Shown here one piece after another: positions 62,041 through 64,000 of a stretch of 64,000 nucleotides of DNA. Within the stretch, counting starts at the first letter, position 1. The number at the start of each line of letters is the position of its first letter. A model generated the notes under the pieces. The model saw nothing but the letters and a program-made list of their open reading frames with translations, was not told where the DNA came from and ran no database searches. A program made the position numbers and the translations under genes. Origin of the DNA: Escherichia phage vB_EcoM_YN3; sequence record PV763136.1. One strand, 5' to 3'.

Positions 62041-62369
62041 TAAACACACATGCATCTGAAGAGACATCCAAAGGAGTGACTATATGTCCCTTGACTGAGC
62101 CAGTTAAAGAGGAAAACTTCGATTCTAAAGACTCCCCATCTTCGCTCCAGGTAGATCCTGAGGCTGATGACCTGACGTGGGAAGACATCGTAGATATCTG
62201 GTTCTCTATTATGCCTGAGCACGAAGAGTTCAGGGGTGGTAGACTATGAAGCACCGAGCCCACACAGGTTCCTCATGCTAAAGCATGGCCTGAAGAGGCA
62301 AACGTGTATAATTCTAGCGTATTGGAACGTATAAACCCCGTTCACATTCTCATTTCCAGAGGAGATTTT

Positions 62370-62585
62370 ATGAAGATAGAAATATTTGGTGGAGCTGACA
62401 ACACTCGTGGCCTGATTTACCTTGAATTTGATGAATCATACCTGCCAGAGGTGTTAAATATAGACTCTGTTGCTGAGGCTTTGGGAGTAAACCCTAAAGA
62501 ACTCCACTCTTGTGCTGAGATCGATGGTTGGGAAGAGACCATGAACATTGATTTCAGTGAAGTAGAGGATGAACCGCTGGACTGA
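62370..62585 (+). CDS. small acidic protein
   Basis: 71 aa from Met 23 with AGAGGAG RBS; TATAAT at 62307-62312. Confidence 0.35.
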   Translation: MKIEIFGGADNTRGLIYLEFDESYLPEVLNIDSVAEALGVNPKELHSCAEIDGWEETMNIDFSEVEDEPLD

Positions 62586-62712
62586 CACACAATTAGCTGC
62601 CCGGCTAAAGTGCTGGAAGCACCTATAACACATCTTTCAACTAAATTTCCTACCACCACAATCACTTACCTCCCACACATGACTGTTTGCTTGTTTAGTG
62701 AGCAGTCATGCC

Positions 62713-62740
62713 TTGACATTCTTGCCTATCCTGATAAAAT
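62713..62740 (+). promoter_or_regulatory. sigma70-type promoter with adjacent inverted repeat
   Basis: TTGACA - 16 nt - TAAAAT; CATGACTG (62678) / CAGTCATG (62703) just upstream. Confidence 0.5.
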
Positions 62741-64000
62741 TAAGTTCTTCTCTTTTCTTTTACCGAGTAATTCGGGTTTTCTGTTCTCTTCGGTTTGAAG
62801 GGGTATGGAGATACACCTGAGTGAACAGGGTGAACAACCGAACATTTGGCTATGGCATTAGCATGGCGAAGCGGACGGGTGACGAAAGAGGGGCCGGAGG
62901 ACACCAGTCACTGCCATATGATATATGGGTGATAACCTGAAGAGTCTGAATAAGTGTTTAAGTACCAGTCAGAGGAAAAGGTGAATGGTAGCCGAAGGGG
63001 GAGGGGGGTTTCTTGTATCTTTAATTTGTATATTATGTATACACTTGTAAACCAATCTCATCTGAATCTGTTTACCACACAAAGTGGATAGAGACAAATA
63101 TTACCTATTAAACTTGAATTATTTATAGAAAATACCACAACACCACTTAAGTCTTTGATTTTACACACAAATCCTGCAGATATTCACCCTCCATATTTAA
63201 CATACTTGTAACATATTCCATACTCTACCTGCTTGATCAATTCACCCAACTACATCCCCATATTTTCCCTGTCTGTACTACCACTGCCCCGCCGGGAGTC
63301 CCGTCATATCTGGCTTTCCAGCAAATATCACACCCACAAATATCATTGCCTGAAGAGGGTTTCATCCCATAATACATGCCTTACCTGAAGAGCGCTTCAT
63401 GCACCACGTAATTTTTTTAATTGACCCCTCCCCGCCGCCGGAAGGGTTGGCTTTTCCCACACAGACCTGAAGAGCCAGCCAGAAATATCTGAATATACCC
63501 AGTTATACCACGATTTTGACCTGACCAACAGGAGCGCTGCCAGGCGGACGAAATGGGAATACTTCTCATTCTTATAACAATTCTCAAATATCGGGGCAGT
63601 GAGGCAAATTAATAGGCCAGGCCGTTCACACAGTGGCACAACATTTGCAACCTATCTTGTGGGAGTGAATGAGAATACCTATCATTGTGAGAATAGTTAT
63701 CATTACGGGCAATTTAACATAATACCCATTATGCGCACCACTGGCGATACATACAGGGATTGATAACATGAGTTACTGTTTACACACATAACAATTATAT
63801 TTCTTACTATTTGTGTGGGATATAGTTAGCAGCCAATAGATTAGATATTGACCTGTAGACTTCCAACCGTCTAGACGTCTAAGCGCCCACACAACAAGGC
63901 TTATACATACACTCCTGAATGTAAACAGGGCCGCAAAAATGCTACCATACCAGATTGTAAATTTTTATGCAGCACTTGACAAAGAGGAGAAAAACTTGTC

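Follow-up and report, generated by a model that had tools for sequence, protein, structure and literature searches.

The stretch of Escherichia phage vB_EcoM_YN3 DNA considered here (64,000 nucleotides of sequence record PV763136.1, referred to as the window) closes with a region, 62289–64000, in which the nine-nucleotide sequence CCTGAAGAG occurs repeatedly and always in one orientation. Genes on the + strand, with positive GC skew, continue up to 62585. The last gene of this rightward arm, 62370–62585 (+), encodes a product of 71 amino acids (aa). A preliminary description, made from the letters alone, had called the region essentially non-coding. This needs correcting, since the 71-aa open reading frame (ORF) is preceded by an AGGAG ribosome-binding site and third codon positions account for 17 of its 23 variable columns in the alignment; the gene is also annotated in relatives. 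The product is very acidic (MKIEIFGGADNTRGLIYLEFDESYLPEVL...EVEDEPLD) and has no match in Pfam. For the ~1.4 kb beyond it (62586–64000) the description holds, there being no credible gene in that part. In relatives the leftward genes, those on the − strand, begin ~1 kb past the terminal repeat described in the next section, which places that repeat in a long non-coding gap between converging arms.

The terminal repeat and the right end of the genome

The last 2 kb of the window is 90–97% identical to sequences in 121 phage records, all of them from rV5-like coliphages of the genus Vequintavirus (a type much employed in phage typing sets and in therapy cocktails), and the window is ~96% identical to the genomes of naswa, Gotham and rV5. 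Positions 63543–64000 align at ~95% identity with nucleotides 1–459 of Gotham and also with the final 459 bp of Gotham, whose record is laid out end to end with a 459-bp repeat annotated at both termini. The base equivalent to window position 64000 is the last base in the records of Gotham, EdH4, HdK5, ECP2309, Pr121LW and EcoIv14a_Aya. The alignment to both Gotham copies, together with the shared end base of the records, identifies the last 458 bases of the window (63543–64000, a feature without strand) as the right copy of the direct terminal repeat (DTR), and these bases also match the repeats reported for EdH4 and HdK5. Published lengths for the DTR in Vequintavirus are 458 bp for EdH4 and HdK5 (PMC6563267) and 459 bp for Gotham (PMC7471380). 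The region shares with these three phages ~95% identity, the same 458/459-bp repeat, the same end point and the same position between converging arms; the papers on them give the repeat length only (PMC6563267, PMC7471380).

Judged from these alignments, 62289–64000 very probably forms the mostly non-coding right terminus of a linear rV5-like genome, ending in the right 458-bp DTR with its last base as the physical right end. One of the possibilities raised in the preliminary description, a genome terminus or packaging region, is thus supported by the alignment of 63543–64000 to the Gotham DTR and by the end that six records share. In a concatemer, the region with one repeat and the ~1 kb of non-coding left end of the next genome would form a junction of ~2.5 kb, set between converging arms and containing a single small gene. 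The rV5 genome was taken by its authors to be circularly permuted, and this stretch was drawn as a 'non-coding' box between genes 163 and 164 (PMC3606486). In many database records rV5-like genomes are still presented as circularly permuted, with an arbitrary start; here the genome end is fixed by homology.

The left edge of the DTR is GGCGGAC (63543–63549) and its right edge is CTTGACAAAGAGGAGAAAAACTTGTC (63975–64000). The heptamer AAATATC is present at 63586–63592, which is +43 inside the left edge. The position of the left edge is supported by the record of Shigella phage CM1, which at ~3100–3700 has two copies of the terminal repeat, the second of them beginning at GGCGGAC. The CM1 copies are separated by a short repeat segment that trails the first copy, and the doubling may reflect how the terminal redundancy was assembled, or else the repeat is truly duplicated. 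Within the DTR there is a tandem 18-nt repeat, TGAGAATAnnTATCATT, at 63670–63704, annotated in naswa as a repeat_region. Units related to it, namely TGAGAATA and TGATAA-N4-TTATCA, are present in the junctions of phages KPP-1 and BME3, which belong to other genera and are dealt with below. About 19 MG0656xx records labelled 'Campylobacter phage' (C2, D1, A135 and others) are rV5-like coliphage sequences, 92–96% identical here; the host labels of these records look wrong, and at least the record of A135 is marked UNVERIFIED.

A single-orientation motif array and its conservation

Upstream of the DTR are five copies of CCTGAAGAG, all on the + strand and exactly at the positions first reported for them (62289, 62936, 63349, 63384 and 63466). 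Copy 1 (62289–62297) is 80 nt upstream of the last rightward gene and is invariant in the 11 phages of the alignment used throughout, which comprises the window and ten relatives chosen across the identity range. Copy 2 (62936–62944) is within an almost invariant block at 62640–63010. Copy 3 (63349–63357) ends a composite sequence, module A, and copy 5 (63466–63474) is in a second such sequence, module B. Copy 4 (63384–63392) lies between them and forms, with the next bases to 63399, the palindrome TGAAG-AGCG-CTTCA; the extended form CCTGAAGAGsGyTTCAT proposed earlier is correct for copies 3 and 4. The copies are 77 to 1254 nt from the DTR, with copies 5, 4 and 3 at 77, 159 and 194 nt before the left cut. 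The spacings between successive copies, 647, 413, 35 and 82 nt, are irregular and vary between relatives. A copy with one mismatch, TCTGAAGAG, is at 62055.

There are seven copies of CCTGAAGAG in the window, all on the + strand, as against 0.74 expected, and none of 100 shuffles gave seven. Five of the seven are within 62289–63474; the remaining two, at 38552 and 46052 (+), are both within long + strand ORFs. As a look-elsewhere control, every 9-mer of the window was scored for its largest same-strand cluster in 1.2 kb, and the same was done for 200 second-order Markov simulations. With five, CCTGAAGAG forms the top cluster of the window and the sole one above three. The simulated maximum was 3 in 149 runs, 2 in 50, 4 in one and 5 in none. 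The complete Gotham genome (137,025 bp) has nine copies, five of them in the homologous 1.2 kb and four within genes. Equal density throughout the genome is clearly not what a search over its remainder reveals: the sense-strand rate is 0.03 per kb in the coding arms versus ~4 per kb here, a difference of ~140-fold. A scan of IMG/VR for two copies 15–45 nt apart was uninformative (it returned >120 unrelated contigs, probably mostly with coding repeats), and a literature search for the motif string gave unrelated primers only.

The array had been thought perhaps to be a cluster of phage-specific promoters, in which case CCTGAAGAG would be an upstream element for a modified host RNA polymerase with transcripts starting just downstream. 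Of the TATAAT-like hexamers reported to follow several copies, two stand: TATAAT 9 nt past copy 1, whose location is that expected of a promoter serving the 71-aa gene, and CATAAT 10 nt past copy 3. After copy 1, six of the ten relatives have CATAAT instead of TATAAT. Copies 2, 4 and 5, however, have no consistently spaced −10-like hexamer, copies 2–5 have no gene downstream, and elsewhere in the window and in Gotham the motif is always inside coding sequence and never before a gene. CCTGAAGAG is also absent from the published rV5 promoter sets (PMC3606486). With the hexamer distance varying, or the hexamer missing, and with all other copies within genes, a promoter function is unsupported and highly improbable.

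Conservation among the Vequintavirus genomes singles out the motif itself. Fifty-three of the 55 instances of CCTGAAGAG in the 11 phages are exact, the two inexact ones being single changes in FV3 copy 4 (CCCGAAGAG) and in Mangalyan copy 5. Of the 45 columns of CCTGAAGAG 2 vary, as against 33–38% of the columns in the non-coding DNA around the copies (for copies 3–5, Fisher P = 0.0015). Although insertions and deletions make the distance between copies 4 and 5 range between 82 and 151 nt, CCTGAAGAG is kept.

Module A (63284–63357, + strand) consists of a CCCCGCCG box, TGGCTTTCC, two AAATATC heptamers (63323 and 63338) and copy 3. Module B (63425–63474, + strand) consists of the C-rich box CCCCTCCCCGCCGCC, which is kept across genera, then GGCTTTTCC, CACACA and copy 5. 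Both have, in the same order, CCCCGCCG (present at ~63287 and ~63432, such boxes having been mentioned in the preliminary description), TGGCTTT(T)CC, CACAC and CCTGAAGAG, and their relatedness points to duplication as the origin of some of the copies. It might then be supposed that the array is without function and consists of leftovers of local duplication (modules A and B, copies 3 and 4) kept by shared ancestry, for which the related modules around copies 3 and 5 and the 17-nt extension common to copies 3 and 4 would be the traces. We think this very unlikely. Within modules A and B, CCTGAAGAG is the best-preserved part, its columns varying much less than those of the remaining duplicated sequence, and the motif not only persists through changes of spacing but recurs in sequence from other genera that cannot be aligned.

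Junctions of other genera and a possible role in packaging

In the Mydovirus KPP-1 a 514-bp repeat at 116316–116829 was classified as T7-like by PhageTerm (PMC9862379). Junctions of other genera were located from the coordinates of this repeat and then, by blastn, in Seunavirus; PVP-SE1, 4MG and GAP31 were compared. The KPP-1 locus has the same converging-arm layout as the window. The junction sequences of these phages barely align with it, yet certain features recur in them. The left edge of the repeat is G(A/G)CGGAC, present once each in the window, KPP-1, PVP-SE1, 4MG and GAP31, and in all five lineages AAATATC is exactly 43 nt inside that edge. A right edge of the form CTTGACAA-(purine-rich)-TTGT is common to the window and KPP-1. 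For phages of three genera these sequences (G(A/G)CGGAC with AAATATC at +43, and CTTGACAA...TTGT on the right) provide landmarks by which ends can be placed without reads. A C-rich box (CCCCTCCCCCGCC-like) is ~70–125 nt upstream of the repeat in all compared lineages; as a DNA hairpin the conserved box is no better than shuffles (z = −0.1 to −0.8). In the window there are four AAATATC copies near the left edge, the one at +43 and three at ~60, 205 and 220 nt before the left cut. The nearest of the three, 63483–63489 (+), is 60 nt before the DTR and the other two are those of module A. In every genus compared, the left edge has members of this motif family on either side.

The motif in the form CCTGAAG(A/T/G)G likewise precedes the DTR on the same strand in Seunavirus; for Mydovirus this is less clear. 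Relative to the repeat, its + strand copies are at −553, −525, −501 and −173 in PVP-SE1, at −386, −344 (a truncated form) and −63 in GAP31, at −309 (truncated), −181 (CTGAAGTG) and −63 in 4MG, and at −317 and −207 (CTGAAGGG) in KPP-1. When occurrences of the 7-mer CCTGAAG in the 700 nt upstream of the repeat were compared with a background of 49 kb of the phage's own coding DNA, the Poisson P was 1.6e-5 for PVP-SE1, 4.4e-4 for GAP31 and 9e-3 for 4MG. More distant is BME3, a phi92-like phage of the genus Justusliebigvirus (now placed in another subfamily), which shares repeat-internal and edge sequences; no copy of CCTGAAG is in its junction. This distribution suggests that the motif array is old, at least in Vequintavirus and Seunavirus, and that the edge heptamer and the AAATATC at +43 are older and positionally fixed. 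Within the end of the BME3 record (2090–3300) there are two copies, ~870 nt from each other, of a 342-bp stretch that is annotated as DTR-L. Between these copies is sequence resembling the Vequintavirus repeat edge, TTCTTGACAAGAAAG...TTTGTGT, and the ends annotated for this phage may not be the true ones.

The last gene of KPP-1 and of GAP31 has a strong predicted terminator whose loop is the first copy of the motif: GGGTTGAC-CTGAAGW-GTCAGCCC, with a T-rich tail after it (z = −2.1 and −2.6). The motifs might then function not in DNA but in the rightward transcripts, as terminator or processing hairpins or as sites for an RNA-binding protein or nuclease, and would serve to stop or trim transcription before it reaches the terminal repeat and the converging leftward arm. 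Consistent with this, every copy is on the transcribed (+) strand at the extreme end of the rightward arm, one of the PVP-SE1 copies is in GGAGCC-TGAAGT-GGCTCC, the GAAGAGC of copy 5 is predicted to pair in RNA with GCUUUUC upstream (z = −2.96), and the palindrome of copy 4 would make a stem-loop. A bidirectional terminator was expected here by the rV5 authors, who found none (PMC3606486). However, most copies are without a hairpin or U-run context, the RNA fold around copies 3 and 4 is no better than shuffles (z = −0.7), and the sole terminator-like site in 62586–64000 is a weak one at 62763–62775. In 4MG and PVP-SE1 the same terminator stem is kept with another loop, which indicates that there the stem, and not the motif, is what is conserved. 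An RNA-level role for the array is unlikely.

Short repeats are also present on the other side of the repeat. Outside the window, directly past the right edge of the DTR, relatives have arrays of TGACAYAAT and TGTTTACAC (Gotham 460–700 and equivalents), and the copy number of these units differs between closely related phages. TTTACACAC has four copies in the Gotham junction and none elsewhere in Gotham on that strand. Both edges of the DTR are thus bracketed by repeat arrays, with CCTGAAGAG and AAATATC on one side and TGACAYAAT and TGTTTACAC on the other, so that the two arrays differ.

In phages whose terminal repeats are short and exact, concatemers are the substrate of packaging, and the terminase has to recognise the junction and cut at both edges of the repeat. 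The recognition sites in well-studied systems are short repeated motifs beside the cut, as in the R-sites of lambda cosB, the hexamers of P1 pac and the repeats of T7. The elements found here fit such cis elements in several ways: they are strictly associated with the repeat in different genera, are conserved beyond the local background, vary in number and spacing, have one orientation and form different arrays on the two sides. The best explanation for the CCTGAAGAG copies, to which we give a probability of roughly 45%, is that they are protein-binding sites of the concatemer-junction region serving end cutting and packaging. A phage protein, for which the small terminase subunit or an accessory factor are candidates, would bind CCTGAAGAG and mark the junction for terminase. 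The AAATATC heptamers on both sides of the left cut would, along with the conserved edge sequences, be further parts of this system and make up the core of cut-site recognition. The DNA would be cut at both edges of the repeat, the repeat duplicated, and packaging would proceed from a fixed start. Candidate cis elements for terminase recognition are accordingly the array of CCTGAAGAG, the copies of AAATATC and the repeat arrays of the left flank. What the comparisons show for CCTGAAGAG is where it lies, that it is enriched, strand-biased and conserved in the genus, and that it recurs in other genera; its binding of a protein and its part in packaging are inferred.

The terminal repeat of T7 is said, from the work of Dunn and Studier in 1983, to be accompanied by arrays of short repeats, SRL and SRR, with the heptamer CCTAAAG. 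The present junction is like that of T7 in that a short terminal repeat has, to its left and to its right, short repeats arrayed in one orientation. In T7, however, a single heptamer forms dense arrays on both sides; here each side has its own motifs, and the distances between the few CCTGAAGAG copies are large. That CCTAAAG resembles CCTGAAG may be due to chance, and there is no settled view of what the T7 repeats themselves do. As with the lambda cosB R-sites and P1 pac hexamers, several copies of a short motif are near the cut, and AAATATC flanks the cut as the P1 hexamers do. Unlike the sites of cosB and pac, CCTGAAGAG is one-sided, extends up to 1.25 kb away and has no regular spacing, and terminase binding here is putative. 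While the terminal repeat was already known, the CCTGAAGAG array is apparently undescribed; the papers searched gave no account of it, of the cross-genus edge signature, of the AAATATC at +43 or of the invariant block.

Several considerations weigh against a packaging role for CCTGAAGAG. AAATATC is the better candidate for core recognition, since its position relative to the cut is kept across genera; the positions and copy numbers of the motif differ between genera. CCTGAAG is not enriched in the Mydovirus KPP-1 (P = 0.13), and use of the higher coding-strand background rate would, by our estimate, weaken the Seunavirus P values ~tenfold. Copies 1 and 2, at 1.25 and 0.6 kb from the cut, are far off for a terminase recognition site, and for the first copy its place in the terminator-hairpin loop of KPP-1 and GAP31 favours a function in transcription or RNA. 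None of the small proteins encoded beside the junction has a Pfam match, and no candidate for the binding protein emerged. Headful packaging with partial permutation was inferred by PhageTerm for a Vequintavirus in a 2026 paper (PMC13211470). Within one genus the literature is here in conflict, with headful packaging on the one hand (PMC13211470) and exact 458/459-bp repeats on the other (PMC6563267, PMC7471380).

The invariant block and the surroundings of the junction

The almost invariant non-coding block of 370 bp in which copy 2 is found (62640–63010, + strand) has 3.6% variable columns, as against 10.6% in the adjacent coding sequence. Near its start is an 8-bp inverted repeat (62678–62685/62703–62710), and then a strong sigma70-like promoter site at 62713–62740 (TTGACA, 16 nt, TAAAAT with TG, an extended −10; 11/12), which is kept in 10 of the 11 phages. 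Of the two sigma70-like promoters proposed in the preliminary description, this is the one that stands. The other, at 63976, has TTGACA only, as its −10 would lie past the end of the window; a scan gives instead a − strand site at 63982–63954. The transcript predicted from ~62747 would be ~265 nt long, with a pyrimidine-rich 5′ part and a 3′ end at GAAGGGGGAGGGGGG (G5AG6). The block stops abruptly at GAAGGGGGAGGGGGG, beyond which lineages diverge or carry replaced sequence. In the + strand RNA a long helix is predicted to close the 5′ and 3′ ends, which is marginal versus shuffles (z = −1.6; for the − strand −0.1), and the few variable positions of the block yield no covariation.

Rfam 15, searched with E up to 1 over 61500–64000 on both strands, had no match, ARAGORN found no tRNA or tmRNA in 60000–64000, blastn of the block against E. 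coli genomes had no match, and nhmmer found no counterpart of it in the Mydovirus, Seunavirus and Certrevirus loci compared. A scan of IMG/VR with a 23-mer of the block returned two contigs only. The ORFs of the block were considered as proteins and set aside: one of 18 codons is broken by a stop in FV3 and one of 39 aa is without a third-position excess. The block is a candidate genus-specific non-coding RNA or DNA site, and being almost invariant and putatively promoter-driven it is a defined candidate for a new phage non-coding RNA or an origin element. A more elaborate possibility, which we hold to be improbable, is that it encodes a ~265-nt non-coding RNA from the 62713 promoter, that this RNA or its G-rich 3′ end acts in replication priming or packaging, and that the CCTGAAG(A/T/G)G sites, of which one is within this RNA, are recognition elements of the same machinery. 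If true, a large group of therapeutic coliphages would have an end-processing system or an origin that works with the help of an RNA.

Between the block and module A is an AT-rich variable spacer (63011–63283, without strand) of 29–35% GC, with TTTAC(C)ACAC repeats at 63071 and 63159; the GC content is lowest, 29–30%, at 63050–63200, a poorly conserved stretch between copies 2 and 3 of CCTGAAGAG. Origins combining a promoter and an AT-rich stretch occur in T7 and T4, and G-rich ends of primer RNAs in ColE1 and mitochondrial DNA. By analogy, the junction might be a replication origin in which CCTGAAGAG and the other short repeats are initiator sites around an AT-rich unwinding segment, and in which the 62713 transcript might give a primer or R-loop. 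The likeness to iteron-type and promoter-dependent phage origins lies in the repeats, of which several short families are confined to the junction, in the AT-rich stretch, and in a strong conserved promoter that reads into it, with the block ending at G5AG6 where conservation collapses. Yet the CCTGAAGAG spacings are not phased like those of iterons, there is no known initiator, and the AT-rich spacer is the least conserved segment of all, with 38% variable columns and partial replacement in Mangalyan/LL12-type phages. The block has no counterpart in the other genera compared, and in KPP-1 only 335 nt separate the repeat from the last gene. DnaA boxes are not enriched, with a single DnaA-box-like TTTTACACA in the region, and the change in GC skew follows the direction of transcription, as the rV5 authors noted (PMC3606486). 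An origin at this position, which the preliminary description had also suggested, is unlikely.

The left-end flank has, at Gotham 714–850, a second nearly invariant non-coding block (ATGTCATGATTAACTAAATAC...GCCATGCCATTCGTTTGCATAGTTGCC), which is kept in nine of ten relatives and largely deleted in FV3. Near the left end there is also a gene for an 87-aa protein (Gotham 1498–1761, corresponding to naswa_156), named 'DNA translocase FtsK' in several records. This name, together with GGGGAGGG boxes, prompted consideration of an FtsK/KOPS link, which was dropped because the 87-aa protein is without a Pfam match and GGGNAGGG shows no enrichment (2 of 18 genome copies).

Further from the junction, in the rightward arm, the gene for a DsbA-like double-stranded-DNA-binding protein (60684–60989) is 1.6 kb from the terminal region in Vequintavirus. 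It was tried as a route to the equivalent region in other genera and rejected, synteny not being kept: in Seunavirus, Mydovirus and Certrevirus the gene has a quite different neighbourhood, beside ligase and MazG-like genes. Four loci obtained by this route were used as background sequence only. Between it and the region is a strong terminator at 61701–61720, then a promoter-like site at 61890–61918, and then short ORFs that are annotated differently between records. A hydrophobic peptide ORF of 29–43 aa is at 61909/61951–62040.

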